Virus record (IMG/VR): IMGVR_UViG_3300030330_001154
Coordinates: 1-25,379 of that record
Strand: one strand, 5' to 3'
Source of the DNA: a virus
Taxonomy: Duplodnaviria; Caudoviricetes
Length of the DNA: 25,379 nucleotides
Below are positions 1 through 23,366 of the stretch, in pieces. The translations under genes and the position numbers were made by a program. The notes under the pieces are model-generated. The model saw only the letters and a program-made list of their open reading frames with translations, ran no database searches and was not told the origin of the DNA. Each line of letters opens with the position of its first letter. The stretch's first letter is position 1.

Positions 1-183
1 CGACAGCGCGACGCTGTACACCGGCGCTATCCTGTCCGTATACAGAGCGAGGAACCTCTAGTGCCAGGCAACTACGGACGCCTCACCATCCTCGAGGACG
101 GCACCCCCTACTACGTCCCCGGCATGTACGCTCCAACGGAAATATGGTTCTGGGTGCTCGAGTACCTAAACCGAACGAACTAA
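1..183 (+). CDS. Small hypothetical protein (either the 3' end of an upstream gene or a 40-aa ORF starting at GTG 61)
   Basis: Frame 1 is open from base 1 to TAA 181-183 (...VPGNYGRLTILEDGTPYYVPGMYAPTEIWFWVLEYLNRTN). GAGGA precedes GTG at 61. No recognisable motif. Confidence 0.4.
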   Translation, partial: RQRDAVHRRYPVRIQSEEPLVPGNYGRLTILEDGTPYYVPGMYAPTEIWFWVLEYLNRTN

Positions 184-190
184 GCCTCTC

Positions 191-287
191 GTCGGGGCTT
201 CCAGGTCATACAACACCTGCAGAGCTGCGCAGGAAAAGCCGGACAACTCTCGACTTCTAGGGGGCGAGAGCTAGATCCCTCCCCGAC
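191..287 (+). ncRNA. Candidate structured RNA or cis-regulatory leader
   Basis: Intergenic, with nested complementary segments: GTCGGGG 191-197/CCCCGAC 281-287; GGCTT 196-200/AAGCC 236-240; CAGGT 202-206/ACCTG 215-219; CCTGC 216-220/GCAGG 229-233; CTCTCG 247-252/CGAGAG 265-270. Strand assumed from flanking genes. Confidence 0.4.
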
Positions 288-309
288 ACCCCATTCCTTC
301 CTCTAAAAA

Positions 310-726
310 ATGTTCTACAAAGCCAGGCCGCAGGATTCGTACTTCTACGACGAGTATTGCAAGGGCAAGTGGACTCTTTTTGATTTCCAATGTCCTATCG
401 ATTTCGGTTGGGATTTTCTCGCGCCGATCGACGGGATTGTGCAACGCATTCGTGAACTTGGAGGTGATAGGTCGATAGACCTCATCTGCTTCGGAGCGTT
501 TCTTCAGCGGATAACGACTAGCGGAGGTGCTTCGGGGGATTTCACGGAAACCCCTCGAGCTATCGCATTGCCAACCGCTAAAAACGAAATCCAGTTCATC
601 GGTCTCGTTTGGAAGGAAGACGGCGGAATCACCTACGTGGCTCTCAAAGAAAAATACGCGGCACTAGCCGAGACGATGCTGCAGGGTGAAACTCCATTGG
701 GGAAGTTCACGGAGATCACCGTATGA
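310..726 (+). CDS. Hypothetical protein (138 aa)
   Basis: ATG-initiated ORF with globular-protein composition; its stop overlaps the next ATG (ATGA 723-726). No recognised motif. Confidence 0.65.
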   Translation: MFYKARPQDSYFYDEYCKGKWTLFDFQCPIDFGWDFLAPIDGIVQRIRELGGDRSIDLICFGAFLQRITTSGGASGDFTETPRAIALPTAKNEIQFIGLVWKEDGGITYVALKEKYAALAETMLQGETPLGKFTEITV

Positions 727-917
727 CTCTCGACGAACGCCTCCGCATCGCGCAGCATGACAACGAGCTCCGTGCCTTCCTCGACTATGAGCGACGCCTC
801 AGCCTCGCCTACGCCCGCAGCAAAGATCCGCACCCTCGACGATGGCTGCGTCCGCATTCAGGTTGGAGAATACGTCGGGACGGTGAGCTCGATGCATCTT
901 GTAGAACCGAAAATTAA
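723..917 (+). CDS. Hypothetical protein (64 aa), overlapping the 757-984 ORF
   Basis: ATGA-coupled to the upstream gene; helical-looking N-terminus (LRAFLDYERRLSLAYARS). Confidence 0.4.
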   Translation: MTLDERLRIAQHDNELRAFLDYERRLSLAYARSKDPHPRRWLRPHSGWRIRRDGELDASCRTEN

Positions 918-984
918 GCAGCTAATGTCCTATTGGACGTTGAAAAACAATCTCAGTGACATCGATCAAGGATCTCAAATCTGA
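757..984 (+). CDS. Hypothetical protein (start may be ATG 787)
   Basis: Beta/alpha-patterned segment KIRTLDDGCVRIQVGEYVGTVSSMHLVEPKIKQL; overlaps the ParB-like gene start. Confidence 0.5.
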   Translation: MTTSSVPSSTMSDASASPTPAAKIRTLDDGCVRIQVGEYVGTVSSMHLVEPKIKQLMSYWTLKNNLSDIDQGSQI

Positions 985-1456
985 TCACAAAAATGCTCGC
1001 AGGCGCACTGATCGTTCCGCCGAACTAATCAAGGAGTCCCTGCAGCGTTACGGCGCAGCCCGCTCGATCGTCATCGATGAGGACAACCGCATCCTCGCCG
1101 GCAACGGCACTATCGAGGGCGCTAAGGAGGCCGGCATCAACCGCATCCGCGTGATCGAGACCGACGGCGACGAAGTGATCGCTGTTCGCCGCACCGGCCT
1201 TACCGAAGAGCAAAAGGTCGGCCTTGCCCTCGCCGATAACCGCACCGCTGATCTCTCCGAGTGGGATCAGGAGATGCTGAACCGCCTCGGCGAGCAGCAC
1301 GACATCTCCCTCTTCTTTTCGCAGGACGATCTCGACGGCATCCTCGAGACCGATGTCGAGCCCCTCCCCCCCGAAGATTTCGACGAGGTAGACGACGACA
1401 TCACAACCGAGCACCGTTGCCCCTCCTGCGGGTACGAATGGAGCGGCAAGTCCTAG
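956..1456 (+). CDS. ParB/Srx-like N-terminal-domain protein with acidic linker and C-terminal CPxCG ribbon
   Basis: NARR...IKESLQRYG...IVIDEDNRILAGNGT..GA and LALADNRTADLSEWD match phage ParB-like proteins; ends in HRCPSCGYEW. Confidence 0.85.
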   Translation: MTSIKDLKSDHKNARRRTDRSAELIKESLQRYGAARSIVIDEDNRILAGNGTIEGAKEAGINRIRVIETDGDEVIAVRRTGLTEEQKVGLALADNRTADLSEWDQEMLNRLGEQHDISLFFSQDDLDGILETDVEPLPPEDFDEVDDDITTEHRCPSCGYEWSGKS

Positions 1457-1457
1457 C

Positions 1458-1497
1458 TGGACGAACCGCCTGCGGCACCCCTACAATCCGTATACAG
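1458..1497 (+). promoter_or_regulatory. Putative sigma70-type promoter for the modification/packaging operon
   Basis: TGGACG 1458-1463, 18-bp spacer, TACAAT 1482-1487, located in the intergenic gap; GGGAG precedes ATG 1516. Confidence 0.45.
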
Positions 1498-1515
1498 CAA
1501 CCGGGAGCGTTCCCA

Positions 1516-1716
1516 ATGCAAATCCGTCTAGTCCCCCCCTACAACCGTCGCGCCCCCAAGTGGTCGGTCGTCACCTTCGTGAAAGATCCGATCATGTGCG
1601 CATGGAAAGAAGAGAAGCGCAAACGCTTCCTCAACCCCGCCGAGGCTCGCGCCTTCGCTGAGTCCCTCGCCCTCGAGAACGACGCCGAACTGATCGAAGT
1701 CGCCCCGAGACGTTGA
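1516..1716 (+). CDS. Hypothetical protein (66 aa)
   Basis: 3' part of track ORF 1261-1716 taken from ATG 1516 (MQIRLVPPYNRR...); RBS-like GGGAG upstream; stop overlaps the next TTG start (TTGA). Confidence 0.65.
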   Translation: MQIRLVPPYNRRAPKWSVVTFVKDPIMCAWKEEKRKRFLNPAEARAFAESLALENDAELIEVAPRR

Positions 1717-2492
1717 GAGACCTCCTGATTAGCCTCCTGGCTCCCCTGCCCCTCGATTTCGCCGTCGCGACGTCGGGGGGTCTTGATTCGTGCACTCTCG
1801 TCGCTGCTGCCGTCGCCGCAGGCAAGCGGCCTCGCATCGTCTCGTTCACCTTTGACGATTTCGAGTCGTCTGACTTCAAGCACGCTCGAGCGGTCGCCGA
1901 TCACTTCGACCTCGACTTCGAGCCGGTCCTACTGCCCAGCGGTCAGAAAGAGATCATTCGCACGATCACCCGACTGATCAAGCAGTACAAGCTCAGCAAG
2001 AAGGCTCGGATCGAATGCGGCTTCCCTTTCTTCTACCTAGCCCGGCAACTCGAGGGGCAGACCCTCGTCACCGGCCTCGGAACCGACGGGCACTTCGGAC
2101 TCTCGAAGAAAGCCATGATTCACTTCCGTGAGCCGCAGGAAAAATTCGACGAGTTCCGCAACGCCTACTTCGCGAACACCGACGCTGCCGGCAAGCTCTG
2201 CATCAAGCGGATCTGCTCGTCCTTTGACGTCGATCTCGTCAACCCTTATTTCGATCCGAAGGTCTTTCATGCCCTGCTCGGTCGATCATGGGACGAGCTC
2301 AACAAACCACGGCAGAAAGAGGTTTTGCGTGCGGCCTTTCCCGAGCTCGACTCCCTCAAGCTTCCGAAGCACACGAACCTGCAACTAGGTGACTCGCAGA
2401 TCGCTGAGCGCCTCGGCGCAACCGCGATGCTCTACGTCCCCGGCTCCGTATCCGCGATCGGTGCCTACAACAAAATCCGCAAGCAGAAATGA
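1713..2492 (+). CDS. Stand-alone asparagine-synthase C-terminal-domain (PP-loop) ATP-dependent amide ligase; predicted CmoY-like DNA hypermodification enzyme
   Basis: PP-loop SGGLDS, SDFKHARAVADHF, LVTGLGTDGHFG (compare the AsnB SGEGADELFG motif), NPYFD, KEVLRAAF. No N-terminal glutaminase domain. Confidence 0.8.
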   Translation: MRDLLISLLAPLPLDFAVATSGGLDSCTLVAAAVAAGKRPRIVSFTFDDFESSDFKHARAVADHFDLDFEPVLLPSGQKEIIRTITRLIKQYKLSKKARIECGFPFFYLARQLEGQTLVTGLGTDGHFGLSKKAMIHFREPQEKFDEFRNAYFANTDAAGKLCIKRICSSFDVDLVNPYFDPKVFHALLGRSWDELNKPRQKEVLRAAFPELDSLKLPKHTNLQLGDSQIAERLGATAMLYVPGSVSAIGAYNKIRKQK

Positions 2493-3559
2493 AGCCGCCC
2501 TACAACGTCCCGTCAATGCGGGAGATCGAAGCAACGCCGTGGAACGGGTTCAAGGTCGCCTCGACCTTTTCAGGTTGCGGCGGCTCCTGCCTCGGTTACC
2601 GAATGGCGGGTTTCCGCGTCATCTACGCAAACGAGTTCATCCCTGAGGCTCAGCGGACCTACAAGACGAATCACCCCAACAGCTACCTCGACGGGTCGGA
2701 CATCAGAACCCTGACCCCTGAGAAGCTCCTCGAGCGTGCCGGGCTTGAACGAGGCGAGCTTGATCTACTCGACGGATCACCGCCCTGTTCCGCCTTCTCG
2801 ACCGCAGGACGACGTGAGGAAGGCTGGGGCAAGGTCAAGCAGTACAGCGACGGCGCGCAACGCGTTGATGACCTGTTCTACGAATACGCCCGAATCTTGA
2901 AAGGCGTGCAGCCGAAGGTTTTCGTTGCCGAGAACGTCAGCGGCCTCGTCAAAGGAACCGCCAAGGGTTACTTCAAGCGGATCCTGCAGGCTCTTCGCGA
3001 TTGCGGGTACAACGTCAGATGCCGCGTCCTTGACGCTCGCTGGCTAGGCGTCCCGCAGATGAGGTCGCGGACGATCTTCGTCGGGGTTCGGAATGATCTC
3101 GGCCTCGAGCCCGCATACCCGAAGCCCTTCCCTTACGCCTACACCGTCGGCGAAGCCCTAACGCCTACCCCCGCAGATACGACCTCGAAGCAGCTAAACG
3201 AAGAGTCGGAGACCTACCGCTATTGGCTCCGAGCTAAGCCCGGCGAAACCCTCGGCGACGTCTGCCGACGGCTAACCGGCAAGACGAGCTTCCTGACTCA
3301 CTACAAGCAATCACCGGACCGCCCGGCGAACGCGATCACTCAGGGCACGCAGCAGCTTTATCACTGGGCCGAGCCTCGGACCCTCACCCTCGGAGAGCTT
3401 CGCCGAATCGGCGGCTTCCCTGATGATTTCATCCTTACCGGCAGTTTTATTCAGCAGTGGGAACGTATCGGTCGTGCAGTTCCTCCGTTAATGATGGCGC
3501 AGGTTGCTAAAACTATTGAGCAAGAGATCTTGTCAAAAATCGGTGGAGATACCCGCTAG
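2489..3559 (+). CDS. C5-cytosine DNA methyltransferase homologue; predicted carboxy-SAM-dependent carboxymethyltransferase (CmoX-like)
   Basis: Motif I FSGCGG, motif IV GSPPC (Cys100), motif VI ENV, motif VIII PQMRSR, motif IX RIGGFPDDF, motif X IGRAVPP with Arg329 in place of the canonical Asn. Confidence 0.9.
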   Translation: MKPPYNVPSMREIEATPWNGFKVASTFSGCGGSCLGYRMAGFRVIYANEFIPEAQRTYKTNHPNSYLDGSDIRTLTPEKLLERAGLERGELDLLDGSPPCSAFSTAGRREEGWGKVKQYSDGAQRVDDLFYEYARILKGVQPKVFVAENVSGLVKGTAKGYFKRILQALRDCGYNVRCRVLDARWLGVPQMRSRTIFVGVRNDLGLEPAYPKPFPYAYTVGEALTPTPADTTSKQLNEESETYRYWLRAKPGETLGDVCRRLTGKTSFLTHYKQSPDRPANAITQGTQQLYHWAEPRTLTLGELRRIGGFPDDFILTGSFIQQWERIGRAVPPLMMAQVAKTIEQEILSKIGGDTR

Positions 3560-4196
3560 TTGGACATTTGAAACGCCGGATGTAGCAACCGGCTTTGATA
3601 ATCACGTCCGCGAACAGCTTCCCTGGTACGACTTAGCAACCGCCGCGATCACTCACATCGCACGGCATTACATCCCGAAGGGCGGGCTGGTCTACGACAT
3701 CGGTTGCGCTACCGGCAACATCGGTCGCAGCCTCGAGGCGACGCTCAAAGCTCGAGACGCCCGACTCGTCGGCATCGATCCTTCTGACGAGATGCGGAAG
3801 ATTTACAACGCCCCGGGGATCTTCGTTTGCTCCCCGGCGGAGTCCTACGAATACGAGCCCTTTGACCTAGGCATCTCGTTCTTGACGTTGATGTTCGTCG
3901 AGCCGAGCAAGCGCCGTGACTACCTTCGGAGGCTCCTCGATAAGTGCCGACCCGGAGGCGCAATCATCATCTTTGACAAGCTCGAGACCGCGCACGGTTA
4001 CTTCGGCACCGTGATGACTCGTTTAACCCTCGCGGGAAAATATGAGGCCGGTGTTAACGCTCAGGAGATAATCGAGAAGGAATTATCTCTTGCGGGAGTG
4101 CAAAGACCCATAACATTGGCTCAACTCCCCGGCGTCCCTTATCAGTGGTTCCGTTTCGGTGATTTCGCCGGTTACATCCTCGAGAAACCGATCTGA
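3543..4196 (+). CDS. cmoA: CmoA-like carboxy-S-adenosylmethionine synthase (class I SAM fold)
   Basis: WTF...VATGFDNHVREQLPWYD, VYDIGCATG, GIDPSDEM, LTLMF, PGGAIIIFDK, EIIEK..L.GV and QWFRFGDF follow the CmoA pattern (DWTFDE.VAEVFPDMI.RSVPGY, VYDLGCSLG, FTLQF, LSEK, WFQ.FNF). GTG 3543 preferred over TTG 3504. Confidence 0.8.
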   Translation: MEIPASWTFETPDVATGFDNHVREQLPWYDLATAAITHIARHYIPKGGLVYDIGCATGNIGRSLEATLKARDARLVGIDPSDEMRKIYNAPGIFVCSPAESYEYEPFDLGISFLTLMFVEPSKRRDYLRRLLDKCRPGGAIIIFDKLETAHGYFGTVMTRLTLAGKYEAGVNAQEIIEKELSLAGVQRPITLAQLPGVPYQWFRFGDFAGYILEKPI

Positions 4197-4513
4197 TGTC
4201 TAAGTCAACGAAGATCGAAGTCGATATGCGGGTCAACCGAGTTGCCCGTCTCCTAGCGAACGGGGCCGTGCGCTCGGAGATCGTTCAATACTCTGCGAAT
4301 GAGTGGGGGGTCTCGGATCGGCAGACAGACAACTACATCGCGAAGGCGAGAGAGCTGATCCGCGCTGACTGGGAGATCGACCGGCGCAGCTTCACTGCGG
4401 AGATCCTTGCCCAGCTTTCGAGCATTCAGAAAGAGGCCCGGAAGACCGGCAACCTCAGCGTCGCCTTAGGTTGCGTCAATCAAGCCGCGAAGGTCGCGCG
4501 GTTGTTTGAATGA
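4196..4513 (+). CDS. terS: Probable terminase small subunit (HTH protein)
   Basis: HTH-like RSEIVQYSANEWGVSDRQTDNYIAKARE; directly upstream of and ATGA-coupled to terL. Confidence 0.65.
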   Translation: MSKSTKIEVDMRVNRVARLLANGAVRSEIVQYSANEWGVSDRQTDNYIAKARELIRADWEIDRRSFTAEILAQLSSIQKEARKTGNLSVALGCVNQAAKVARLFE

Positions 4514-5835
4514 GCATTCTGGCGTCAGTCCCGGGGGGCTCGATCCTTTCCGCTATCGAGTCCGCAACGCCTTTCACTGAGGCTGACCTGCGCGGATACG
4601 TTGACGGGCTAGCCGAGGGGCTCACGGGGCCTCAGCGTGAGGTGTGGGAGGCGAACAAGCGGTTCAAGCTGCTCTGCTCAGGTCGTCGTTTCGGCAAGAC
4701 CTATCTCTGCATCACTCGGCTGATCTGCTGGGCGATGGAAAAGCCCGGAAGCCTGTGCTGGTACGTCACCGCGAACTATCGGATGGCGAAGCAGATCGCA
4801 TGGCGTCAACTGAAGACGATGGCCCCCGAGGAGCTCGTCGTTAAACGGAACGAGTCGGACCTATCGATCGAGTTCGCTAACGGCAGCCTGATCGCTCTCC
4901 GGGGCGCGGATAACGAGGACAGCCTGCGGGGGGTCAGCCTTTCGGCGCTCGTCATCGATGAGGCCGCCTACGTCAAGCAGACGGCGTGGGAGATGGTCCT
5001 ACGGCCCGCCCTATCGGATCAAAACGGCCCCGCCTGGTTTATTACTACCCCTGCCGGCCTGAACTGGTTTCACGATCTCTGGGAGCAGGCTCAGGAGCAA
5101 GCGGATTGGGACACCTTCTCGTTTACGACGATTCAAGGGGGGAACGTCTCAGCGGAAGAGATCGAGGCCGCGCGAAACACTCTCGATGAACGAACCTTTA
5201 GGCAAGAATATCTAGCGAGCTTTGAGACGCTCTCGGGTCGGGTTTATCCCGGCTTCACCGACGAGAACATCAGCGAAGACGTCAAGGACACCGGCGGGCC
5301 GATCTACTGGGGCACCGACTTCAACGTCAGCATCATGGCCGGCGTTCTCGGTAGCAGAGTCGGCGACACGCTTCATATCTGGGACGAGCTCGCCGTCAAG
5401 CAGTCGAATACCGACGAGGTCTGCGCGATGCTCCGCGCTCGGTTCCCTGATCGTCAGGTCATCGCCTACCCGGACCCGACGGGCTCAGCTCGTAAGACGT
5501 CCTCGGCGGGGCGTACCGACCACGACATCATCCGCCGCTTCGGCTTTAGCTGTATCAGCCCGAAGGCTCCTTGGGCCGTTAAAGACAAAATCAACGCCAC
5601 GAACTGGATGATCAGAACGGCGAAAGGCAGCCTGCGTCTATTCGTACATCCCCGCTGTAAACACACAATCAAGGCTCTAAAAAACGTGACCTACAAGCAA
5701 GGCGCGGAAGACTATGTGATCGATAAGTCGGCAAACATCGAGCACTGGACTGACGGCCTCGGTTACTTAATCCTCGGCGCGTTTAATCCTCTGCACGAAC
5801 GCGCTGGACGGGGCACTGGCATCAGGCTTTACTAA
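4510..5835 (+). CDS. terL: Terminase large subunit
   Basis: Walker A SGRRFGKT, LRG, Walker B VIDEAA, coupling motif ITTPAG, FRQEYLASF, nuclease motifs GTDFN and HWTDGLGY. Confidence 0.95.
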   Translation: MSILASVPGGSILSAIESATPFTEADLRGYVDGLAEGLTGPQREVWEANKRFKLLCSGRRFGKTYLCITRLICWAMEKPGSLCWYVTANYRMAKQIAWRQLKTMAPEELVVKRNESDLSIEFANGSLIALRGADNEDSLRGVSLSALVIDEAAYVKQTAWEMVLRPALSDQNGPAWFITTPAGLNWFHDLWEQAQEQADWDTFSFTTIQGGNVSAEEIEAARNTLDERTFRQEYLASFETLSGRVYPGFTDENISEDVKDTGGPIYWGTDFNVSIMAGVLGSRVGDTLHIWDELAVKQSNTDEVCAMLRARFPDRQVIAYPDPTGSARKTSSAGRTDHDIIRRFGFSCISPKAPWAVKDKINATNWMIRTAKGSLRLFVHPRCKHTIKALKNVTYKQGAEDYVIDKSANIEHWTDGLGYLILGAFNPLHERAGRGTGIRLY

Positions 5836-5862
5836 ACTGATTGCGATGGGCGGGTTCTAGCT

Positions 5863-7311
5863 GTGTACTCAGGCTTTTCTGGTCGGCAACGCGTCGGCAA
5901 CGTGACGACCGTCGAAAGCCCCAACACGGCTTACGTCAACATGGAGCCTCACTGGCTTCTTATCGAAGCGTTGTTGCAAGGAACTTACGGAATCAGAAAA
6001 GGTCACAGAAAATATCTTCCGCAGGAGCCGAGAGAGCTAGACGAGGCATACGACAACAGGCTGATGCGTTCAACGCTTGCGCCTTATTACGTCAGGCTCG
6101 AGCGGATGTTGGCGGGTATGTTGACCCGCAAGCCTGTACGCCTCGAAGACGTCAGCGACGTTGTCACTGAGCAACTCTTCGACGTTGACCTGCAAGGCAA
6201 CGATCTCAACGTGTGGACCTACGAAACCGCACGGAAATGTATTCGTTACGGACACGTCGGCGTTTTAGTTGACGCGCCGAAGGCGGGCGAGAACGGGCGG
6301 CCCTACTGGGTAGCCGTGACGCCAAGAGACATCCTCGGCTGGCGGAGCGAGGTCAAGGACGGCCGGCAGCAGCTTACTCAGTTGCGGCTGATGGAAGAGA
6401 TCACCGTGCCCGACGGTCTCTACGGCGAGAAGCAGGTGCAGCAGGTTCGGGTACTTACCCCCGGCGCTTTCGAGATTCATCAGAAGGATAAGAAAGGGGA
6501 CTTTGTTCTGATCGATGAGGGCCGCACGAGCCTCAGCGAGATCCCGTTCGCTGTCGCCTACTCGAACCGCGTCGGCGTTCTCGAGTCACGCCCGCCGCTC
6601 TCTGACATCGCTGAGTTGAACCTCAAGGCGTATCAGGTGCAGTCTGATCTCGATAATCAGCTCCATATCAGCGCCGTTCCGATGCTCGCCATCTACGGCT
6701 TCCCGCAGTCGGCAGAGGAGATCAGCGCCGGGCCAGGAGAGGCGATGGCGCTCCCTGAGTCAGCGCGGGCCGAATATATCGAGCCAGGCGGAAACAGCTA
6801 CAACGCACAGTTTCAGCGGCTTGATCAGATCGCAGGTCAGATTAATGAATTAGGCCTCGCTGCCGTTCTCGGTCAGAAGCTCAGCGCAGAGACGGCGGAG
6901 GCGAAGAAGATCGACCGGAGTCAGGGCGACAGCACAATGATGGTCATCGCTCAGCAGATGCAGGATCTGATCGATAACTGCCTGTCATTCCACGCGCAGT
7001 ACATGCAGCAGTCTCAGGTCGGCAGCAGCTTCGTTAATCGTGACTTCCTCGGTCAGCGTCTCGAGCCGCAAGAGATTCAGTCCCTGTTGCAGCTCTATAC
7101 CGCAGGAACGATTACGCAGGAAACGCTCCTGAATCAGCTCTCTGCCGGTGAGGTTCTCGGCGACGAGTTCGACGTCGAGGAGGAGATCGAGGCGACGCAG
7201 ACCGGCGGCCTGATCGAGATGCAGCAACCTGAGCCCGAGCCTGCGCCGGAAGAAGAGGCCACAATGCCAAAAGCAGAGCCGGAGGCAGAAGAAGATGAGC
7301 TGGCTGGATAA
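5863..7311 (+). CDS. Portal protein (DUF4055-like)
   Basis: Follows terL; 482 aa; YLPQEPRE..AY..RL, DVDLQGNDL, YGHVGVLVD, PPLSDIAELN motifs; acidic C-terminus. Confidence 0.88.
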   Translation: MYSGFSGRQRVGNVTTVESPNTAYVNMEPHWLLIEALLQGTYGIRKGHRKYLPQEPRELDEAYDNRLMRSTLAPYYVRLERMLAGMLTRKPVRLEDVSDVVTEQLFDVDLQGNDLNVWTYETARKCIRYGHVGVLVDAPKAGENGRPYWVAVTPRDILGWRSEVKDGRQQLTQLRLMEEITVPDGLYGEKQVQQVRVLTPGAFEIHQKDKKGDFVLIDEGRTSLSEIPFAVAYSNRVGVLESRPPLSDIAELNLKAYQVQSDLDNQLHISAVPMLAIYGFPQSAEEISAGPGEAMALPESARAEYIEPGGNSYNAQFQRLDQIAGQINELGLAAVLGQKLSAETAEAKKIDRSQGDSTMMVIAQQMQDLIDNCLSFHAQYMQQSQVGSSFVNRDFLGQRLEPQEIQSLLQLYTAGTITQETLLNQLSAGEVLGDEFDVEEEIEATQTGGLIEMQQPEPEPAPEEEATMPKAEPEAEEDELAG

Positions 7312-7579
7312 GTTGCGAAAGCGCGGGCAAGAAGAGCCGATCAATCGACTCCTGTTCTTTACGAAACAAGAGCTGACAGAGCAGAGCTATGCGGTGATCA
7401 GAATCACCTGGTACATCGACGGTCAAATCGCCGGTGTCTCAGAGACCTCGATCGGCTTATACGACCAAGATGTCATCGCTGAGTTTTCTGATCTAGTCGG
7501 GAACGCTTTACGCGCCGGTTGTGACGTTTCGGTCGCTTGTATTGATGACCCGCAATATCTGGGCATCTATGACTCATGA
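7295..7579 (+). CDS. Hypothetical protein (94 aa)
   Basis: Fills the portal-MuF gap and overlaps both neighbours. Confidence 0.7.
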   Translation: MSWLDKLRKRGQEEPINRLLFFTKQELTEQSYAVIRITWYIDGQIAGVSETSIGLYDQDVIAEFSDLVGNALRAGCDVSVACIDDPQYLGIYDS

Positions 7580-8805
7580 GCACGCCGTCGGAGCTTTACC
7601 GCAATGCGATCGACCTCAATCGATTTAGCAACAGCGTTGCCAAGCGAGTTGCTGTTGCATACAACGATCTTGTTCTGGATTCTGTTGATCAGCTTCGTGG
7701 CATCGATGAGCTTGCTGCGCCTGCAAAGGCTGCACGGCTTCGGGCGATCCTCGCGCAGCTAAAGGAGTCCTTAGAGGGCTGGGCGGGAGCAAGCACGCTG
7801 TCGGTCGTCGAGGATCTACAGGGCTTAGCCGTTCTTCAGAGTGAGTTTGTGACGAACGAGCTAAGGCAGGCTCTGCCGATCGAACTTCGAGAGCAGATCC
7901 GCAGTATTCAGATCAGCCCGCAATTTGCTCAATCAGTCGCAACAATAGACCCAACTGAGATTAACGTTGTTTCTCTTAGCGACGACCTACAGGCCGCCGT
8001 CACCGGAGCGCCGCAAACGTTCAGCCTGACCGCCGCGCAGGGAACGACCGTCACCCTCCCGAACGGGAAAGTGCTTGAGAAGTCTTTCCGGGGCCTCGCT
8101 GAATCGCAGGCCGATCTATTCGCTAAGACCGTTCGCAACGGCCTACTTACCGGCGAATCAACCGACAAGATCGCTCGAAGGCTCAAGGGTCGTTTGCGTT
8201 TCGGTCAGCCGGGAAGCCTGCGGCAGATCGCACAGGCCGGAGGCGAGATCACTGCCGTCGCTAATAATCAGGTGATGGCGTTGATCCGGACGAGCATCAA
8301 TCAGGTCGCGAACGAAACGAGTCAGCAGGTCTACCGGGCGAATCAGGACATAACGAAACGTTATCGATACGTCGCGACGCTCGACAGCCGAACTTCCCCG
8401 ATCTGCCGGTCTCTTGACGGTCGCCTGTTTGAGTACGGCAAAGGGCCTACCCCGCCGCAACATTTCAACTGCCGATCTACAACCGTGCCAATCATTGATT
8501 ACAGCGGTCTTGGGATCTCGCGGCCCCCGCAGACGGAACTCCGCCGACCTAATACGGCGTTCGGTCCTTCCCGGGTCAGACGCGGCGATACGGTCCCGAG
8601 CAATCAGACTTACGGCGAGTGGCTTGATAAGCAGCCCAAGGAAGTCAAGGCCGATGTCCTTGGTGCGTCTAAGGTCCCGTACTTCAACCGACTGTCTGAA
8701 AAGTTCGGCCCGACAGTCGCGATCCGGAAGTTTGTAAGTCAAGACGGCACAGAGCTAACGTTAGAGCAGCTCAAGCGTCGTTATCCCGATGTCTCTTCCA
8801 GCTAA
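7576..8805 (+). CDS. Minor head morphogenesis protein (MuF / SPP1 gp7 family)
   Basis: YVATLDSRTSPICRSLDG...PPQHFNCRST signature; position after the portal gene. Confidence 0.9.
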   Translation: MSTPSELYRNAIDLNRFSNSVAKRVAVAYNDLVLDSVDQLRGIDELAAPAKAARLRAILAQLKESLEGWAGASTLSVVEDLQGLAVLQSEFVTNELRQALPIELREQIRSIQISPQFAQSVATIDPTEINVVSLSDDLQAAVTGAPQTFSLTAAQGTTVTLPNGKVLEKSFRGLAESQADLFAKTVRNGLLTGESTDKIARRLKGRLRFGQPGSLRQIAQAGGEITAVANNQVMALIRTSINQVANETSQQVYRANQDITKRYRYVATLDSRTSPICRSLDGRLFEYGKGPTPPQHFNCRSTTVPIIDYSGLGISRPPQTELRRPNTAFGPSRVRRGDTVPSNQTYGEWLDKQPKEVKADVLGASKVPYFNRLSEKFGPTVAIRKFVSQDGTELTLEQLKRRYPDVSSS

Positions 8806-9882: not shown

Positions 9883-10572
9883 ATGGCCGATGAAACTAAT
9901 CGTCAGGAGCCTGCGGCTTTTGATGCGTCTCAAGAAATCGATCAACTGCAAAAAAGGTTGCAGGCGATGGATCGAAAAAATGCAGAGCTTCTCGATGAGT
10001 ACAAAAAAGCTGTAGAGAAATCCAAAGCTGTTCCTGATGGCGTTGATATTCAGGAGCTACTGGACTTCAAAGCTAAGGCAGAACAAGCAGACCTGGAGAA
10101 ACAAGGCAAGTACACCGAAGCAAGACAGGCTCTGGAGCAGCAGTTCCGTGAGGCGACGGAAGAGAAGGACAAGCGCATCGCGGAGCTAGAGGCACGCGTG
10201 CGTGAGCTTGAGCTAATCGCCCCGGCTAACAACGCACTCGCTGACGTTGTGCATGATCCGAGCATCGTGTTCAAGGCTCAACTGCTGAACCCGAATCAGA
10301 TCGAGCGAGAGGCCGACGGCACTGTCGTAGTCGTCAACGGTTACGAGCGCAAACCGATCGGCGAATGGGCGAAGACTTTGCCGAGCTATATGCAGAAAGC
10401 TCCGAAGCCCGTCGGAACTGGTGCCCCTTCAGGGCGAAGCGCAGGCGGCGATATTCCCCCGGGGACAAAGAATCCCTTCGCCAAAGAGTCCTACAACCTC
10501 ACAGAACAGTCCCGGCTATATCGCACGGATCGGGATATGTATGAGAGGTTGAAAGCTGCTGCTAACCGTTAA
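9883..10572 (+). CDS. Capsid scaffolding protein
   Basis: Coiled-coil N-half, G/P-rich linker and C-terminal KNPF...NLTEQ.RLY motif; immediately upstream of the major capsid gene. Confidence 0.8.
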   Translation: MADETNRQEPAAFDASQEIDQLQKRLQAMDRKNAELLDEYKKAVEKSKAVPDGVDIQELLDFKAKAEQADLEKQGKYTEARQALEQQFREATEEKDKRIAELEARVRELELIAPANNALADVVHDPSIVFKAQLLNPNQIEREADGTVVVVNGYERKPIGEWAKTLPSYMQKAPKPVGTGAPSGRSAGGDIPPGTKNPFAKESYNLTEQSRLYRTDRDMYERLKAAANR

Positions 10573-10642
10573 TATGAAAAGAACCGGCTGCGCTGGTTAG
10601 GGCTGCGCCCAAACCGTAAACATCTTTTTTTGAGGATCTGTC

Positions 10643-11665
10643 ATGGCGACTCTTCGCTCTGACATCATCATCCCAGAGGTATTTACGCCTTATGTCATTG
10701 AGCAAACCACTCAGCGTGATGCCTTCCTGGCTAGCGGTGTGGTGCAGCCAATGGCGGAGCTAAATGCCGCTGAAGATGGTGGTGATTTCGTACAAGTGCC
10801 TTTCTATAAGGCAAACCTGTCAGGCGATTTTGAGCGTCTGACGGATAGCTCTTCGCTGACTCCCGGCAAGATCAGTGCAGACAAGCAGGTTGCTGCTGTC
10901 CTGCATCGTGGTCGTGCATTCGAGTCCCGTGACCTGGCTGCCTTGGCTGCCGGCTCTGACCCGATGGCTGCGATCGGCAACAAGATTGCTGACTACATCG
11001 CTAACCAGCGCCAGAAGGATCTGTTGTCCTGCCTGGCCGGTATTTTCGGTGCTGTCGGTGATACCAGCTCCGCATCTTTCGCAGCCCTTGCTGTTGACGG
11101 TGCTTCTGGTGACAGCCCGACTCAGCTCACCGCACGTCAGATTGTTGAAGGTCAATCCCTGCTGGGTGATCAAGGCGACAAGCTGGCTGCAATCGTTGTG
11201 CACCCCAAGGTGTATTACGACCTTAAGGAGCGCCGTGCCCTTGACATGATCTACGACGATGCAGGTCAGCCTGACACCGCCGCAGCTCAAGGCTCACTGG
11301 CGAACGCCTTCGGTCCCGTTGCCGTCCCAACTTTCATGGGAATGCGCGTAATTGTGTCTGCTGATGTGCAGACCGCTGGCTCCGGTGCGACTACCGAGTA
11401 CGCCAGCTACATGTTCACTCAGGGTGCCGTCGGCTCCGGTGAGCAACTCGGCCTCCAAACTGAGACCGACCGCGACATCCTTGCCAAGAGCGATGCGATG
11501 TCGATCGATCTGCACTACGTGTACCACCCGATCGGTTCTTCGTTCTCTACTTCCGTTTCCAACCCGACTCGGGCACAACTGGAAACCGTGGGTAACTGGA
11601 CAAAGGTGTACGAGACCAACAACATTGGCATCGTGCGGATTACCACCACCAGCGCACTCGACTGA
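10643..11665 (+). CDS. Major capsid protein
   Basis: 340 aa; TLRSDIIIPEVFTPYV...FLASGVV, SDPMAAIG, ETDRDIL, NPTRAQLETVGNWTKVY motifs typical of siphovirus coat proteins; GAGGA RBS. Confidence 0.9.
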   Translation: MATLRSDIIIPEVFTPYVIEQTTQRDAFLASGVVQPMAELNAAEDGGDFVQVPFYKANLSGDFERLTDSSSLTPGKISADKQVAAVLHRGRAFESRDLAALAAGSDPMAAIGNKIADYIANQRQKDLLSCLAGIFGAVGDTSSASFAALAVDGASGDSPTQLTARQIVEGQSLLGDQGDKLAAIVVHPKVYYDLKERRALDMIYDDAGQPDTAAAQGSLANAFGPVAVPTFMGMRVIVSADVQTAGSGATTEYASYMFTQGAVGSGEQLGLQTETDRDILAKSDAMSIDLHYVYHPIGSSFSTSVSNPTRAQLETVGNWTKVYETNNIGIVRITTTSALD

Positions 11666-11679
11666 GGAGGTAACTAACC

Positions 11680-12042
11680 ATGGCATCCATTTTTGAGGCA
11701 ACAGCGGGCAAACTGATTGGCCCGACTACTGGCGGCACTGTGACCCAGGCCACCAATAAGACCACTGGCGTGACGCTTAACGCGGCATCCGGTCAAATCA
11801 CCATGAACGGCGCAGAACTTGCTGGTGCCGCTGAAGCCACCTTCACGGTAACTAACAGCGAAGTCAGCAGCACTGACGTTGTTGTGGTCAACCACAGCTC
11901 TGCCGGAACTGCCGGTTCTTATCTCGTTCAAGCCAACAGCATTGCTGACGGCTCGTTCGCGATCACCGTGGCTAACGTTGGCTCTACCGCCAGCGAAGCC
12001 ATCGTGCTGAGCTTCGTGGCTCTGAAGGGCGCTAGCTCCTGA
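11680..12042 (+). CDS. Probable capsid decoration / minor virion protein
   Basis: Strong GAGGAGG RBS directly after the MCP gene; beta-rich A/G/S/T composition. Confidence 0.6.
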   Translation: MASIFEATAGKLIGPTTGGTVTQATNKTTGVTLNAASGQITMNGAELAGAAEATFTVTNSEVSSTDVVVVNHSSAGTAGSYLVQANSIADGSFAITVANVGSTASEAIVLSFVALKGASS

Positions 12043-12212
12043 TGGGTCTCTTCGCCTTTAGGCGGATGAAGGAACGTGAGGCTGCTGCACAAGCGGCGGC
12101 CTCCGCTTCTAAAAAGCCGACCAAAAAGACTTCTACTGTGACGCCCGATGGCAGTAACAATCGACGCAACAGCGGGCGGCGCAAACGCCAACAGCTACAT
12201 AACGCTGACTGA
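12042..12212 (+). CDS. Small basic hypothetical protein (56 aa)
   Basis: Hand-translated MGLFAFRRMKEREAAAQAAASASKKPTKK...; TGATG-coupled; fills the gap before 12148 and overlaps that gene. Confidence 0.5.
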   Translation: MGLFAFRRMKEREAAAQAAASASKKPTKKTSTVTPDGSNNRRNSGRRKRQQLHNAD

Positions 12213-12708
12213 GGCGAACACGTTCGTCGAGGCGATGATTGAGTCCACTGATGTGGGCAAATGGAGCACCGGCAATGACGATTCACGCAACCGCGCTTTG
12301 ACAGCTGCGGCTGAACGTTTGGACCGCGAGAGATTTTTAGGCGCACGCGCCACCGATACGCAAGCAAGGCAATGGCCGCGTACTGGCGTGCGAAAGCCCG
12401 ACACCTACGTCAACACTTACGCAACCGGGTTTCCGTTTCGTATCTCTGAGGATTACTTCACCGACGAAGAGATCCCGGATCAGATTAAGCGGGCTCAGAT
12501 CGAGCTTGCTGTCTACCTGAAGAACAATACGGACGGCATCAGCTTGAGCGGCCTGAACGACTTCAAGAACGTGAAGATCGGCAGCCTTGATGTCACGCCT
12601 GATAAGTCCGGCGCTGTTGGTGCTGATCACGTTCCGCCGATGTTTGAAAGGTACTTAACGGGTCTTAGAATTAGTGGACCAGGCAACATCGCTATCAAAC
12701 GGAGCTGA
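12148..12708 (+). CDS. Head-tail adaptor (DnaT-like/ANSY family)
   Basis: ANSYITLTEA, RAL..A...LD, Q...WPR and IP.QIKRAQIELA motifs; position after the capsid genes. Confidence 0.75.
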   Translation: MAVTIDATAGGANANSYITLTEANTFVEAMIESTDVGKWSTGNDDSRNRALTAAAERLDRERFLGARATDTQARQWPRTGVRKPDTYVNTYATGFPFRISEDYFTDEEIPDQIKRAQIELAVYLKNNTDGISLSGLNDFKNVKIGSLDVTPDKSGAVGADHVPPMFERYLTGLRISGPGNIAIKRS

Positions 12709-12710
12709 CC

Positions 12711-12941
12711 ATGTACGCAGATCTTTCAGGCGGCTTCGAGTTCATCTCTGATACTGCTGCCCACACCGGCAGGTTCAGCAAGGTGTACTTCAAGGAAGAC
12801 ACTGTGATCAGCGCGATCACGGTGAAGAATGCAACCGGCAACAGCTTGGCCGGTGAGACCTTTGTGGCTGACACCTACATCTGCGGAATTATTACAAGCA
12901 TCACGCTGACCAGTGGCGCTTGCATTGCCTATAACCTCTGA
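12711..12941 (+). CDS. Hypothetical protein, probably virion-associated (76 aa)
   Basis: GGAG RBS; beta-rich; TGATG-coupled to the next gene. Confidence 0.65.
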   Translation: MYADLSGGFEFISDTAAHTGRFSKVYFKEDTVISAITVKNATGNSLAGETFVADTYICGIITSITLTSGACIAYNL

Positions 12942-13297
12942 TGGCACTTGCTGATTCACTGGCACGGGTTGCAAGCAATGTGCTGAAGCAGTTCGGCGGT
13001 GATGTGACAGTTCGTATCGTCACGGCTGGCAGCTACAACACCACAACCGGCGCAATTACGGAAAGCGAAAGCGACACAACGGTTCCAGGCATCCTTGAGG
13101 ATGTGAACCTGCGCGAGGTGAATGAGCTGGTGCAGGCTGGTGACAAGCGTCTAACGGTTGCCGCTGATGACCTTGCCACCGCGCCTGAGACGAAGGATCG
13201 CGTCGTTATTGGCAGCGTTGTTCATCAGATCATCCGTGTGGAGACAACGGAGCAGGACAACACTGCGATCATTCATGAGCTGATCCTGAGGGCGTAA
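12941..13297 (+). CDS. Head closure / head-tail joining protein
   Basis: Size, synteny and YNTTTG...LVQAGDKRL...P...DRV pattern. Confidence 0.7.
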   Translation: MALADSLARVASNVLKQFGGDVTVRIVTAGSYNTTTGAITESESDTTVPGILEDVNLREVNELVQAGDKRLTVAADDLATAPETKDRVVIGSVVHQIIRVETTEQDNTAIIHELILRA

Positions 13298-13299
13298 CG

Positions 13300-13668
13300 A
13301 TGGCACGCGAGATCCCGCTGGACCGAATCGGTGACTACTACCGGGAGAGCATCCGGATCTTGGTTGCGGCTACGACGCTTGAGGCCGAGAAGCGCCTGAA
13401 AGAAAAGACGCCTGTCCGCGTTGTTTACGAAGGGGAGCCCAAAGGCGGCGGTCGATTGCGAAACGCCTGGCAGTCTGATCCTGCGAAAGGCGAAGTAATC
13501 AACAACGTTGAATATGCCGAGCCGGTTGTCTATGGAACGAACCTGCCGCCATCTTGGAAGGGCGAATACAGGACGCGGCAGAACACGGTCCCCGGCTTCC
13601 CTGACCTCATCGCCAAAGAGCTTGAGTCATGGGTGAAGCGCGAGTACAACAAGATTGCGAACAGGTGA
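13300..13668 (+). CDS. HK97 gp10-like tail completion protein
   Basis: KTPV...GRLRNAW...NNVEYAEPVVYG motif. Confidence 0.75.
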   Translation: MAREIPLDRIGDYYRESIRILVAATTLEAEKRLKEKTPVRVVYEGEPKGGGRLRNAWQSDPAKGEVINNVEYAEPVVYGTNLPPSWKGEYRTRQNTVPGFPDLIAKELESWVKREYNKIANR

Positions 13669-13671
13669 CGC

Positions 13672-14097
13672 ATGGCTGCTGCTGATCTCAACTCCATCAG
13701 GGCCACGATCGAAGGCAGGCTTGCCACTGAGCTTGCTAACAGCCCGGCCATCCCTGTTGTCTTCCACAACATGGCGTATGAGCCGACGCCGAACAGCTCA
13801 TGGGTGCAATGTCTAACGACCTTTGGGGCCAACGAATATCTAGGTCAAGGCCTGACAACTAACTCTCAAAACCGGATTGTCGGCCTTGTCGTGATGAACA
13901 TATTTTCCGGCAAAGGCGTAGGCCCTGGAGCCAACCTTGTCATTGGTAAACGCATTCGGGATTTGTATAATCGAGTTATCGTGTCGGGGGTTTACTTCGA
14001 CGCTCCTTCTGGCCCAGAGGCTCTGGCTTCGCCAAGTCCCGAGGGTTACTTCCAAACTCAGGTCCGTGTGACCTTTGAATTTATCGAGGAACTCTGA
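13672..14097 (+). CDS. Tail terminator protein (DUF4128-like)
   Basis: Immediately upstream of the tail tube gene; G...NIF...GVG and FQTQVRVTF patterns. Confidence 0.7.
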   Translation: MAAADLNSIRATIEGRLATELANSPAIPVVFHNMAYEPTPNSSWVQCLTTFGANEYLGQGLTTNSQNRIVGLVVMNIFSGKGVGPGANLVIGKRIRDLYNRVIVSGVYFDAPSGPEALASPSPEGYFQTQVRVTFEFIEEL

Positions 14098-14099
14098 CC

Positions 14100-14522
14100 A
14101 TGGCCGTCCTTCGCGGAGAACAAGGCGCAGTCCAGTTTGACGCCGCAGGCTCAAGCAACGCCACAATCGTCGGCACCCGTAGCTGGAGCCTTTCAACAAC
14201 TAAGGAAACTCTGGACGTCTCCAAGCATGGCGACACCTTCCGCAGTTTCGTTGGCAGCATGATTAGCGGCTCTGGCACTGTTGAGCTGGTCTATGACCCT
14301 GACGCCACCGGCCAAGCTGCTTTCCTCGAAGACGTTCTGACCACTGCAGATCCTGCAGACGCGACGTTTGAATTGTTCACAACCGGCACCACATCTGGAT
14401 CCGACTCTGTGAGCTTCGCCGGAATCATCACCGACATGGAGATCACTTCAACTGTTGGTGAGATTGATATTGTCACCTGCAACTTCATCACCAGCGGCAC
14501 CATCACCGGCAACCTTGAGTGA
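14100..14522 (+). CDS. Major tail tube protein
   Basis: 140 aa; RSWSLS..KETLDVS.HGD..R.FV..MISGSGTVEL.YD and SFAGIIT motifs; GAGGA RBS. Confidence 0.85.
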   Translation: MAVLRGEQGAVQFDAAGSSNATIVGTRSWSLSTTKETLDVSKHGDTFRSFVGSMISGSGTVELVYDPDATGQAAFLEDVLTTADPADATFELFTTGTTSGSDSVSFAGIITDMEITSTVGEIDIVTCNFITSGTITGNLE

Positions 14523-14533
14523 TAAGGCTATAG

Positions 14534-14559
14534 TTTAAGCGGCAAAAGTGTCGCTTAAA
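14534..14559 (+). promoter_or_regulatory. Intergenic hairpin abutting the chaperone start codon
   Basis: TTTAAGCGGCA-AAAG-TGTCGCTTAAA forms an 11-bp stem with one G-U pair; the last A is the A of ATG 14559. Confidence 0.55.
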
Positions 14560-14918
14560 TGCCTGCATCAAATCGAACCGTTGATCTGCTGGTTGGGGCG
14601 TTTGACCTCAACCAGCGCCGCAAGTTTGAGCTGAAGAACGGCGACGGCAAAAAGATTGTCGATCTGTACTTCAAGCCAATCACGCGAGCAGACCGAAAGA
14701 AAGCTTCTGCCCTCGCCGGGACTGATGAGGCGTTAGACATCAGCACGCAAATGCTGTGTCAGGTTGCTGAGCTGGAAGATGGCACGAAAGCCTTTGCCTC
14801 TGCTGATGCGAATAAGCTTCAGCGTCAGTTGCCCGAGTCTGTGCTGAATGAAATTGAGCTGTTCTTGTTTGGCGTTGCGGACGATAGCGGCGACATCGAC
14901 GACGTAAAAAACGACTGA
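14559..14918 (+). CDS. Tail assembly chaperone (lambda gpG analogue)
   Basis: Lies between the tail tube and tape measure genes; ends at a slippery heptamer. Confidence 0.85.
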   Translation: MPASNRTVDLLVGAFDLNQRRKFELKNGDGKKIVDLYFKPITRADRKKASALAGTDEALDISTQMLCQVAELEDGTKAFASADANKLQRQLPESVLNEIELFLFGVADDSGDIDDVKND

Positions 14919-15094
14919 AGCAGGACAAGTGGACTTACTTTGAGTTCTTCTTGGCCTGCGAACTTGGAATGACTGTTAGCAGGCTTCGCACGGAACTGAC
15001 CGATGCGGAGCTGCTGCACTTCGCGGCGTTTTACTCGTTAAAAGGAGAAGAGGAGGAAAAAGTAATGGAGCGCGCAAAGCAGAGACGGCGGTAA
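14906..15094 (+). CDS. Tail assembly chaperone -1 frameshift extension (gpGT analogue)
   Basis: A AAA AAC at 14906-14912; the -1 frame reads KRLKQDKWTYFEFFLACELGMTVSRLRTELTDAELLHFAAFYSLKGEEEEKVMERAKQRRR to TAA 15092-15094. Confidence 0.85.
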   Translation, partial: KKRLKQDKWTYFEFFLACELGMTVSRLRTELTDAELLHFAAFYSLKGEEEEKVMERAKQRRR

Positions 15095-15118
15095 GATTGA
15101 CTTATCGCCGGGTGGCTT

Positions 15119-17464: not shown

Positions 17465-17805
17465 TGGCTACTTTCCCGAGCATCACCCCTACCTACGGGC
17501 AGGTCAAAACAAGCAAGCCGAACACCCGTAGGGTCGTCTTCGGGGATGGCTACGAAAGCCGCGTGATTTTCGGCTTGAACCAAAACCCGAAGGCTTATCA
17601 GCTGACCTTTGAAGTATCCGAAACGGACGCAGACACGATTGAAACTTTCTTGGATGCGCGTGCCGTAGATAGCGACGCTTTTGATTTCACGCCGCCCGGT
17701 GAGGCCTCTAGCTCGAAGTTTGTTTGTGAAAGCTGGAGCAAGTCGATCCCCTACCTAAACCGTGCCACGATCTCAGCAACATTCCGCCAGGTATTTGAAC
17801 CCTGA
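17464..17805 (+). CDS. Distal tail protein (lambda gpM-like)
   Basis: FGDGYE.R...GLN, IETFLDAR, FDFTPP and ATFRQVFEP motifs. Confidence 0.9.
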   Translation: MATFPSITPTYGQVKTSKPNTRRVVFGDGYESRVIFGLNQNPKAYQLTFEVSETDADTIETFLDARAVDSDAFDFTPPGEASSSKFVCESWSKSIPYLNRATISATFRQVFEP

Positions 17806-18716
17806 TGGCTTACACCGCATGGGCTGCTAGCACCGCGTTTTCCGTTGGCGATGTCCGACGGGCGACAACTGTGCAGGCCTCTGGCCTTGTTTTCAAATGC
17901 ACGACCGCTGGCACTTCGGGCAGCTCTGAGCCTTCGTGGGCCACGGATATTGGTAACACGGTCAACGACAACACCGTTGTCTGGACTGCGATTAGCAGCG
18001 TTTACGAGGAGCTGAGTGTTCTAGCTCCGAGCGCAATTATTGAAATGTTTGAGCTGCATCTCGACAATACGCTGCACGGAAGCACTGATGTTTACCGCTG
18101 GCATTCAGGCGTCAATGAACAGGTCACGGGAAACATTGTGTGGAACGGCAACACCTATTCAAGGATTCCAATTCAGGCGCAGGGCTTTGAGTTCAGGAAT
18201 ACAGGAACGCTGCCTAGGCCGACCTTGACCGTTGCAAATACTGACAGCTCCGTCACAACCATTCTGATCTTGGTGAACGCGACCACAACCGGCAACGACT
18301 TGGCCGGTGCAGAGGTTAGGAGAATCAGGACGCTGAAAAAGTTTCTTGATGCCGCCAACTTCTCAGGCGGCAACTCAGACGCAGACCCTTACGCTTCAAT
18401 GCCTGAGGAGCGTTACTTTATCGACAGGAAGACCTCAGAGAGCCGTGAGGCTGTTGTCTTTGAGCTTGCCAGCAAGTTTGACCTAGCCGGGCAAAAAATC
18501 CCCAAGCGACAGTGCATCGCCAACGTCTGCCAGTGGGAGTACCGCAGCAGCGAATGCAGCTACACCGGCAGCAATTATTTCGACATCAACGACAACACTG
18601 CGGCAACCCTCGCGGATGATGTCTGCGGCAAGCGGTTGAGTTCCTGCAAGCTGCGGTTCGGCTCAGCAGGTGAGTTGCCTTTTGGTTCATTCCCTGGTGT
18701 TGGCTTGACGCAATGA
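17805..18716 (+). CDS. Tail tip protein (lambda gpL-like) with an extra N-terminal module
   Basis: IEMFEL, PRPTLTVAN, VRRIRTLKKFLDAANF and C-terminal CQWEYR..EC.Y...DVCGKRLSSCKLRFG..LPFGSFPG (the Fe-S-binding cysteines of gpL). Confidence 0.9.
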   Translation: MAYTAWAASTAFSVGDVRRATTVQASGLVFKCTTAGTSGSSEPSWATDIGNTVNDNTVVWTAISSVYEELSVLAPSAIIEMFELHLDNTLHGSTDVYRWHSGVNEQVTGNIVWNGNTYSRIPIQAQGFEFRNTGTLPRPTLTVANTDSSVTTILILVNATTTGNDLAGAEVRRIRTLKKFLDAANFSGGNSDADPYASMPEERYFIDRKTSESREAVVFELASKFDLAGQKIPKRQCIANVCQWEYRSSECSYTGSNYFDINDNTAATLADDVCGKRLSSCKLRFGSAGELPFGSFPGVGLTQ

Positions 18717-23332: not shown

Positions 23333-23366
23333 TATGCAGGGAATGTTGTCCGCAGCGGGCTAGGTC

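Follow-up and report, generated by a model that had tools for sequence, protein, structure and literature searches.

We identified a DNA-modification cassette, ParB-CmoY-CmoX-CmoA, in the marine phage record IMGVR_UViG_3300030330_001154 (hereafter the window, meaning the whole stretch of 25,379 nucleotides that was analysed). The encoded proteins likely make carboxy-S-adenosylmethionine (Cx-SAM), carboxymethylate cytosine C5 in the phage DNA and amidate the product with an amino acid, probably glycine, at a site predicted to be CCA, not GC, a reading to which we assign a probability of roughly 0.82. The pathway type has already been published for Synechococcus phage S-B43 (Yang et al., Nat Commun 2025, PMC12783734), and on sequence grounds the window cassette is a further copy of that three-enzyme system. 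According to the results and discussion of that paper, SpCmoA makes Cx-SAM, SpCmoX (PDB 8YF3) places 5-carboxymethylcytosine at the C of GC, SpCmoY ligates glycine to the carboxymethyl group, and the S-B43 phage DNA contains the modified base. By homology to these enzymes, the window CmoA would convert S-adenosylmethionine (SAM) and prephenate to Cx-SAM; CmoX would attack cytosine C6 through C100 while R329 holds the Cx-SAM carboxylate, thereby selecting the cofactor; and CmoY would adenylate the new carboxylate before amide formation. The purpose is likely protection from host nucleases; the protection reported in those sections of PMC12783734 is HhaI resistance in vitro only, and they contain no CRISPR test.

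The original prediction had proposed three overlapping genes for this chemistry and had pointed, with a request for verification, to an analogous CmoA/CmoX/CmoY glycine system in S-B43. That system is real (PMC12783734), and the three open reading frames (ORFs) lie at 1713-2492, 2489-3559 and, for the third, up to a common end at 4196. Hidden Markov model and structure searches of the three proteins led to 8YF3 for CmoX, to synthetase domains for CmoY and to 4GEK for CmoA.

The central enzyme, CmoX (2489..3559, plus strand, 356 amino acids (aa)), is a predicted DNA cytosine C5-carboxymethyltransferase, as the original prediction had it. Its best solved relative is SpCmoX (E 1.9e-74, 40% identity), the next methyltransferase following at 3.8e-30. 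The catalytic motif SPPC is present (S97, P98, P99 and C100), and R329 aligns with SpCmoX R350. Six SpCmoX residues are named in PMC12783734, namely the Cx-SAM contacts F25, E47, F48 and D69 together with C98 and R350; they correspond to F27, E49, F50, D71, C100 and R329 in the window, all of which are invariant in 45 of 45 aligned rows. That study defined its 5,615 CmoX candidates by SPPC and R350, sequence features that the window protein also has. In Pfam it matches DNA_methylase (E 3.4e-58) and in NCBIfam it is likewise labelled a DNA cytosine methylase, as would be expected of an ordinary 5-methylcytosine methyltransferase with unrelated neighbours. We consider this alternative very improbable: motif X carries Arg329 in place of the Asn of canonical C5 methyltransferases (HhaI N304), wild-type SpCmoX accepts Cx-SAM as its sole cofactor (PMC12783734), and CmoA is nearly always adjacent. 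In the variable region that recognises the target, identity to SpCmoX drops to 18%, from 51% and 59% in the flanking cores, so the GC target cannot be transferred from S-B43. Separately, Staphylococcus phage vB-SscS-F1 (L005:4997-6004) encodes a C5 methyltransferase homologue between a CmoA and a CmoY-type ligase; this homologue carries SPC(Q), with GGV instead of the motif X Arg, and would fail the CmoX filter of PMC12783734.

CmoY (1713..2492, plus strand, 259 aa) is a predicted ATP-dependent amide ligase. It was originally described as a ligase of the asparagine-synthase type lacking a glutaminase domain, which agrees with its Pfam matches (Asn_synthase, E 1.5e-10; no GATase match). Identity to SpCmoY is 37.8% across 217 aa (E 4e-49), and among 58 phage records the S-B43/S-B05 ligase is the best match. 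The predicted structure of CmoY (predicted local distance difference test, pLDDT, 96) resembles beta-lactam and asparagine synthetases in their synthetase domains (E 4e-11 to 4e-9). An alignment of 131 diverse homologues has 47 columns with conservation of 70% or more, and CmoY agrees with SpCmoY at 32 of them, including K97, E101, C102, D125, K132, R149, K202, H220, N222 and Q224. By analogy with SpCmoY, glycine is the somewhat favoured amine. A different amino acid or a small amine could be attached instead, with the first two steps the same, though this seems to us distinctly less probable: the two proteins have invariant Lys, Arg, Glu, Asp and His positions in common, and CmoY has no glutaminase domain, unlike the ammonia-type ligase of close relatives (the glutaminase-fused form is seen, for example, in locus L081). 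Two findings weigh on the other side. CmoY and SpCmoY differ near conserved motifs (A98/T99, T124/A125, H127/Y128 and F128/Y129), and in a network of 270 sequences their link is present at a threshold of 50 and absent at 56, with a direct score of 41.5, the published network having been built on 2,251 ligases at 1e-56 (PMC12783734). CmoY-type domains were also observed at the C-terminus of three proteins of 608-678 aa (P0257, P0273 and P0327).

By sequence, CmoA is the weakest link, at 24% identity to SpCmoA. The third gene had been identified as CmoA-like, which holds; its start had been placed at TTG 3504, which does not. Judging from its homologues, the start is most likely GTG 3543, because it gives the length of 217 aa seen in 62 of 120 homologues and because M[DEKQ]IP is the N-terminus of 100 of these 120, which places this predicted carboxy-SAM synthase at 3543..4196 on the plus strand. 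The best NCBIfam match is TIGR00740 (E 3e-16), a profile search gives CmoA at E 1.9e-21 over CysG at 7e-9, and the predicted structure (pLDDT 91) has the CmoA fold with lid helices. Three CmoA structures, from E. coli and Haemophilus, are its top fold matches, the best being E. coli CmoA 4GEK (template-modelling score 0.85, Z 25.4, root-mean-square deviation 2.4, 212 residues aligned), and equivalents of Y39, D62, G64, D89 and E164 (as D) are retained.

The protein might nonetheless use SAM as an ordinary methyltransferase, for instance to esterify the carboxymethyl group, with Cx-SAM supplied by the host, and several observations point that way and against synthase activity. The TIGR00740 score of 59.8 bits is below the cut-off of 193.3; the CysG/BelI methyltransferases, which we take to be carboxyl methyltransferases, are close in fold (Z 23.4 vs 25.4); the Asn132 equivalent is missing; and the position of E. 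coli Arg199 is occupied by Glu180, which all 83 aligned proteins share. In E. coli, Arg199 binds the carboxylate through a salt bridge, as the relevant part of PMC3663124 describes. SpCmoA, a proven synthase (PMC12783734), likewise has Glu at this position and lacks the Asn132 equivalent, so activity is compatible with the loss of Arg199, whose role the invariant R188 (Lys in SpCmoA) may have taken over. Together with the profile search and the persistence of cmoA beside cmoX described below, this makes the methyltransferase alternative improbable, and Cx-SAM synthesis remains the preferred function. The absence of CmoB or a tRNA target had also been noted at the outset; neither a tRNA nor a CmoB-family (PF08003) match was found in the record, which is ~65% complete.

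The three genes had been expected to co-occur in other phages, and gene neighbourhoods agree. Among 72 distinct IMG/VR contigs found via CmoX or CmoY (L007 and L009 being one contig), CmoA is present in 69, a CmoY-type ligase in 30 and a glutaminase-fused ligase in 13, while 18 carry ParB-CmoX-CmoA without a ligase between; in bacterial-genome loci, CmoA occurs in 71 of 80. CmoA thus accompanies CmoX in loci with a CmoY-type ligase, with the other ligase type and with no ligase at all. The published neighbourhoods of the 5,615 CmoX candidates comprise 4,257 CmoA, 2,251 ligases and 1,660 ParBc (PMC12783734), and our search of the literature from 2025 on listed no second phage study of carboxymethylcytosine or Cmo. 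Many Verrucomicrobiota metagenome-assembled genomes (MAGs) have several ParB-CmoX-CmoA copies, often with a longer CmoX (L174-L201, L219 and L230-L238).

A ParB-like gene upstream, which the original prediction had not included, is the fourth gene of the cassette (956..1456, plus strand). The protein (ParBc; PHROG 620, E 4.6e-31; no match in Pfam) has an acidic linker and a C-terminal CPxCG motif whose residues C155, P156, C158 and G159 are invariant in 45 of 45 sequences, and its gene is found in 60 of the 72 IMG/VR CmoX loci and 74 of the 80 bacterial-genome loci. ParB activates some T-dioxygenases, and ParB, terminase and modification genes are linked in TET clusters, according to the parts of PMC8256090 and PMC13229309 that treat them. 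A role for the window ParB as a helper of CmoX is conceivable, and we propose it only tentatively. Between parB and cmoY lies an ORF of 66 aa (1516..1716, plus strand) without family matches in Pfam, NCBIfam or PHROG and with Atlas matches all <0.9, whose occurrence is limited to CmoY-type loci within the close clade.

The cassette is not an assembly artefact, since a contig from a public sequencing run is identical to window positions 1255-4187 with zero mismatches and the IMG/VR locus L006 has the same three enzyme genes at 98-99% identity. The genes are tightly packed: cmoY starts with TTG inside the stop of the 66-aa ORF, cmoY and cmoX overlap by ATGA, and cmoA overlaps by TGATG with a likely terminase small subunit gene, terS (4196..4513, plus strand). 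The latter is assigned by its position directly before the terminase large subunit gene, terL, in relatives (it matches PHROG 34910, of unknown function); terL itself follows at 4510..5835 on the plus strand (Pfam Terminase_6N; PHROG 2). The linear record contains siphovirus packaging, head and tail genes; its capsid protein shares 72% identity with the cyanophage KBS-S-2A protein and 65% with its counterpart in Prochlorococcus phage MED4-184, and the 18 DNA runs listed as containing the record are all marine. In RNA data, one run gave short contigs covering only parts of the cassette region. Scans of window positions 1-6000 for repeats, promoters and terminators gave nothing above chance, including no parS-like repeat. 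An ORF of 138 aa without family matches (310-726) occurs at only 4 CmoX loci (L025, L026, L035 and L036), is not depleted in CCA and is probably a recent insertion.

The CCA prediction comes from motif avoidance, with all comparisons made among living sequences. The region 757..8805 is poor in CCA/TGG and may be the footprint of the CmoX target site: its eight genes, from parB to a minor head gene, hold 84 copies where synonymous shuffles predict 207 (z -14.9). The avoidance holds whatever the flanking base, and within the region the proline codon CCA accounts for 7 of 120 uses. Eight capsid and tail genes (9883-25148) have 295 occurrences against 347 expected. In the terL body, 7-18 avoidable CCA/TGG sites remain in 19 Cmo loci vs 26-45 in 31 loci without Cmo, while the count of GC is unchanged (215 vs 214); in sets matched for G+C, ratios to control are 0.50 for CCA, 0.68 for TCA, 0.67 for ACA and 0.92 for GCA. 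Three cultured relatives have CCA ratios of 1.01-1.15 vs 0.33 in the window. On longer contigs the CCA-poor region starts ~12 kb ahead of terL and ends 4-6 kb past it, replication genes included, and a complete relative with an empty slot in place of the cassette has no such region.

S-B43 itself offers a calibration, using orthologous genes of S-SM2 and Bellamy as controls; these two phages are absent from the listed CmoX matches, whose six Synechococcus records are all accounted for. The density of GC dinucleotides is 21.0 per kb in seven replication genes of S-B43 but 34.2 and 33.7 per kb in the S-SM2 and Bellamy orthologues, a depletion of ~39%, and the structural region is near control (L001 and L245; 95-117 kb, 145-151 kb). 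Seven of eight genes compared were clearly lower in GC, the exception being hsp20. A mismatched comparison, of structural with control replication genes (0.79 vs 0.76 and 0.78), was dropped in favour of orthologues. This depletion is not mentioned in the results and discussion of PMC12783734, and a literature search on CCA or target depletion, judged by titles and opening lines of abstracts in mostly non-subscription papers, gave nothing relevant. The clade of the window thus depletes CCA in the same gene class in which S-B43 depletes GC, and it is from this parallel that CCA emerges as the candidate target. Specifically, we suggest, at slightly less than even odds, that CmoX modifies the C in (C/T)CA, mostly CCA.

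At about even odds, the avoidance is instead unrelated to CmoX, arising from host defence or lineage composition, and CmoX marks GC or some other motif. Several findings weigh for this and against a CCA target. Among 23 Cmo lineage sets, the CCA ratio is at most 0.74 in 7, 0.85-0.89 in 3 and at least 0.96 in 13 (six control sets give 0.95-1.06), and one lineage without signal, L050-L056, has the same recognition-loop motif as the window. The 80 bacterial-genome loci have no local CCA signal, and the low-G+C Cmo loci L022 and L131-L133 retain 24-30 CCA/TGG sites in terL. Independent events are few; the 19 Cmo terL rows count as one because they form one clade, and the S-B43 calibration rests on one phage. 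In general, moreover, CA/TG is lower and both CG and TA are higher. On the other side, the avoidance is absent in G+C-matched sisters without the cassette as well as in the cultured relatives; in S-B43 the proven target is avoided in the same regional fashion; no GC depletion is seen here; and cassette bins in three GATase-type loci with a different recognition loop are more weakly depleted (0.74-0.78 vs 0.30-0.61). A second terL lineage (L016/L017), which counts as a second event and has a similar recognition loop, has 14-22 CCA/TGG sites.

Two other interpretations of these data were rejected. Local CCA depletion is not a general property of Cmo cassettes, with 79 of the 80 bacterial-genome loci at 0.85 or above and the exception, L167, low far away too. 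CG as the target was also discarded: CG is raised near the cassette but tracks G+C content across loci, and its gain comes with a rise in TA and a fall in CA/TG, which fits CA loss better. Separately, GGCC is nearly absent (0.03 of expected) in L016-L018, alongside CCA depletion, and two bacterial MAG contigs (L223 and L236) have CA/TG at 0.23-0.59 and CG at 1.64-1.75, both near and far from a CmoX-like gene.

The regional limit of the CCA depletion has three possible causes. Selection could act on the genes transcribed from incoming modified DNA; recombination could continually replace capsid and tail genes, whose identities to the window vary freely among relatives; or modification could itself be regional and guided by ParB. 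A specific form of the last, in which modification is limited by the ParB-like partner to some ~15 kb surrounding the packaging site, seems to us highly unlikely.

Parts of the cassette are also swapped among related phages. Among 23 backbones with TerL at least 90% identical (window included), three versions of Cmo are distributed as 12, 4 and 3, with 4 unclear. In L080, parB is 97-98% and the sequence from cmoA onward 92-98% identical to the window, but the 66-aa ORF, cmoY and cmoX are only 62-82% identical; L095 has the reverse pattern. The CmoY-CmoX block, together with the 66-aa ORF, is therefore exchanged between near-identical phages as a DNA mosaic.

At a larger scale, the stretch before terS (window 984 to 4196) is a slot with varied content. 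In the best 80 of 301 loci collected by TerL, it holds Cmo in 25, a methyltransferase/PAPS-reductase/ParB set in 11, a radical SAM set with a TET-associated glycosyltransferase (TAGT) in 7 and TAGT/TET in 3; it is empty in 20 and too short or unclear in 14. One locus, L102, without cluster evidence for the PAPS group, was counted as unclassified and lies outside the terL comparison of CCA. Individual loci have ParB, a methyltransferase, a PAPS-reductase (DUF3440) and a further ParB (L096, L099, L103, L104, L117, L138, L139, L143, L146 and L147), or ParB with TAGT and TET/JBP modules (L149:2184-4335, L136 and L150). A set that combines two ParB genes with radical SAM/SPASM and a TET-associated glycosyltransferase, while TET itself is missing from the slot (L144:6830-9658, L128, L135, L137 and L141), is possibly an undescribed modification. 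In the cultured phage MED4-184 (L242:3291-5415), the slot contains ParB, an FkbM-type methyltransferase and a TET/JBP gene, annotated there as a DNA methylase and a queuine tRNA-ribosyltransferase. Titles and opening lines of abstracts, again of mostly non-subscription papers, revealed nothing relevant on an exchangeable modification slot in cyanosiphoviruses.

The cassette alone adds little to a chemistry that is already published. The locus does bear on questions posed in PMC12783734, as its results and discussion frame them, concerning other CmoX specificities, other ligase amines and the role of ParBc. It gives a concrete and cheap target prediction, CCA; it belongs to a natural allelic series for the amine, in which backbones whose TerL proteins are 94-100% identical carry no ligase, an amino-acid ligase or a glutaminase ligase; and it marks a slot through which entire DNA-modification systems are traded among marine cyanosiphoviruses. 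A carboxymethyltransferase specific for CCA, if confirmed, would join the GC- and CG-specific enzymes as a new tool for labelling DNA. Taken jointly, these observations lead us to a more speculative hypothesis, which we regard as rather doubtful in its entirety: that CmoX marks non-palindromic CCA, a new specificity; that the costly, bulky amide has purged this motif from the half of the genome running from replication to packaging, so that the target can be read from depletion in non-structural genes; that CmoY-CmoX swaps change the amide and probably the target; and that the slot alternates at least five unrelated chemistries. Were this true, the target of an uncultured phage's modifier would be readable from motif depletion, as in S-B43 for GC.

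Among known systems, S-B43, also a marine cyanobacterial phage, has the same three enzyme families, the equivalent SPPC and R350, a glutaminase-less ligase and Glu in place of the CmoA Arg199. The two differ in gene order (Y-X-A with ParB in the window, A-Y-X in S-B43), in location (beside the terminase in a ~40-kb siphovirus, beside a helicase in a 214-kb myovirus), in depleted motif (CCA and GC, respectively) and in sequence, with identities of 40% for CmoX, 38% for CmoY, 24% for CmoA and 18% for the recognition region. The closest isolate CmoX proteins are those of Streptomyces phage TurkishDelight (50%) and Moraxella phage Mcat8 (48%). TurkishDelight has the order ParB-CmoX-GATase ligase-CmoA, with a ligase fused to glutaminase, unlike the window; Mcat8 (ParB-CmoX-CmoA) has no ligase, again unlike the window, but provides the closest isolate CmoA (50%) and has its genes in the same position before terminase and portal. 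The E. coli CmoA/CmoB pathway to tRNA cmo5U, in the part of PMC3663124 that covers it (PDB 4GEK, 4IWN), has the CmoA fold and most cofactor contacts in common with the window, whose record lacks CmoB, a tRNA and Arg199, and whose predicted acceptor is DNA cytosine. The TET/JBP clusters linked to terminase and ParB, in the portions of PMC8256090 and PMC13229309 that describe them, similarly place a ParB-like gene and modifying enzymes near packaging genes, although their chemistry differs and ParB dependence is known there for T-dioxygenases, not for CmoX.

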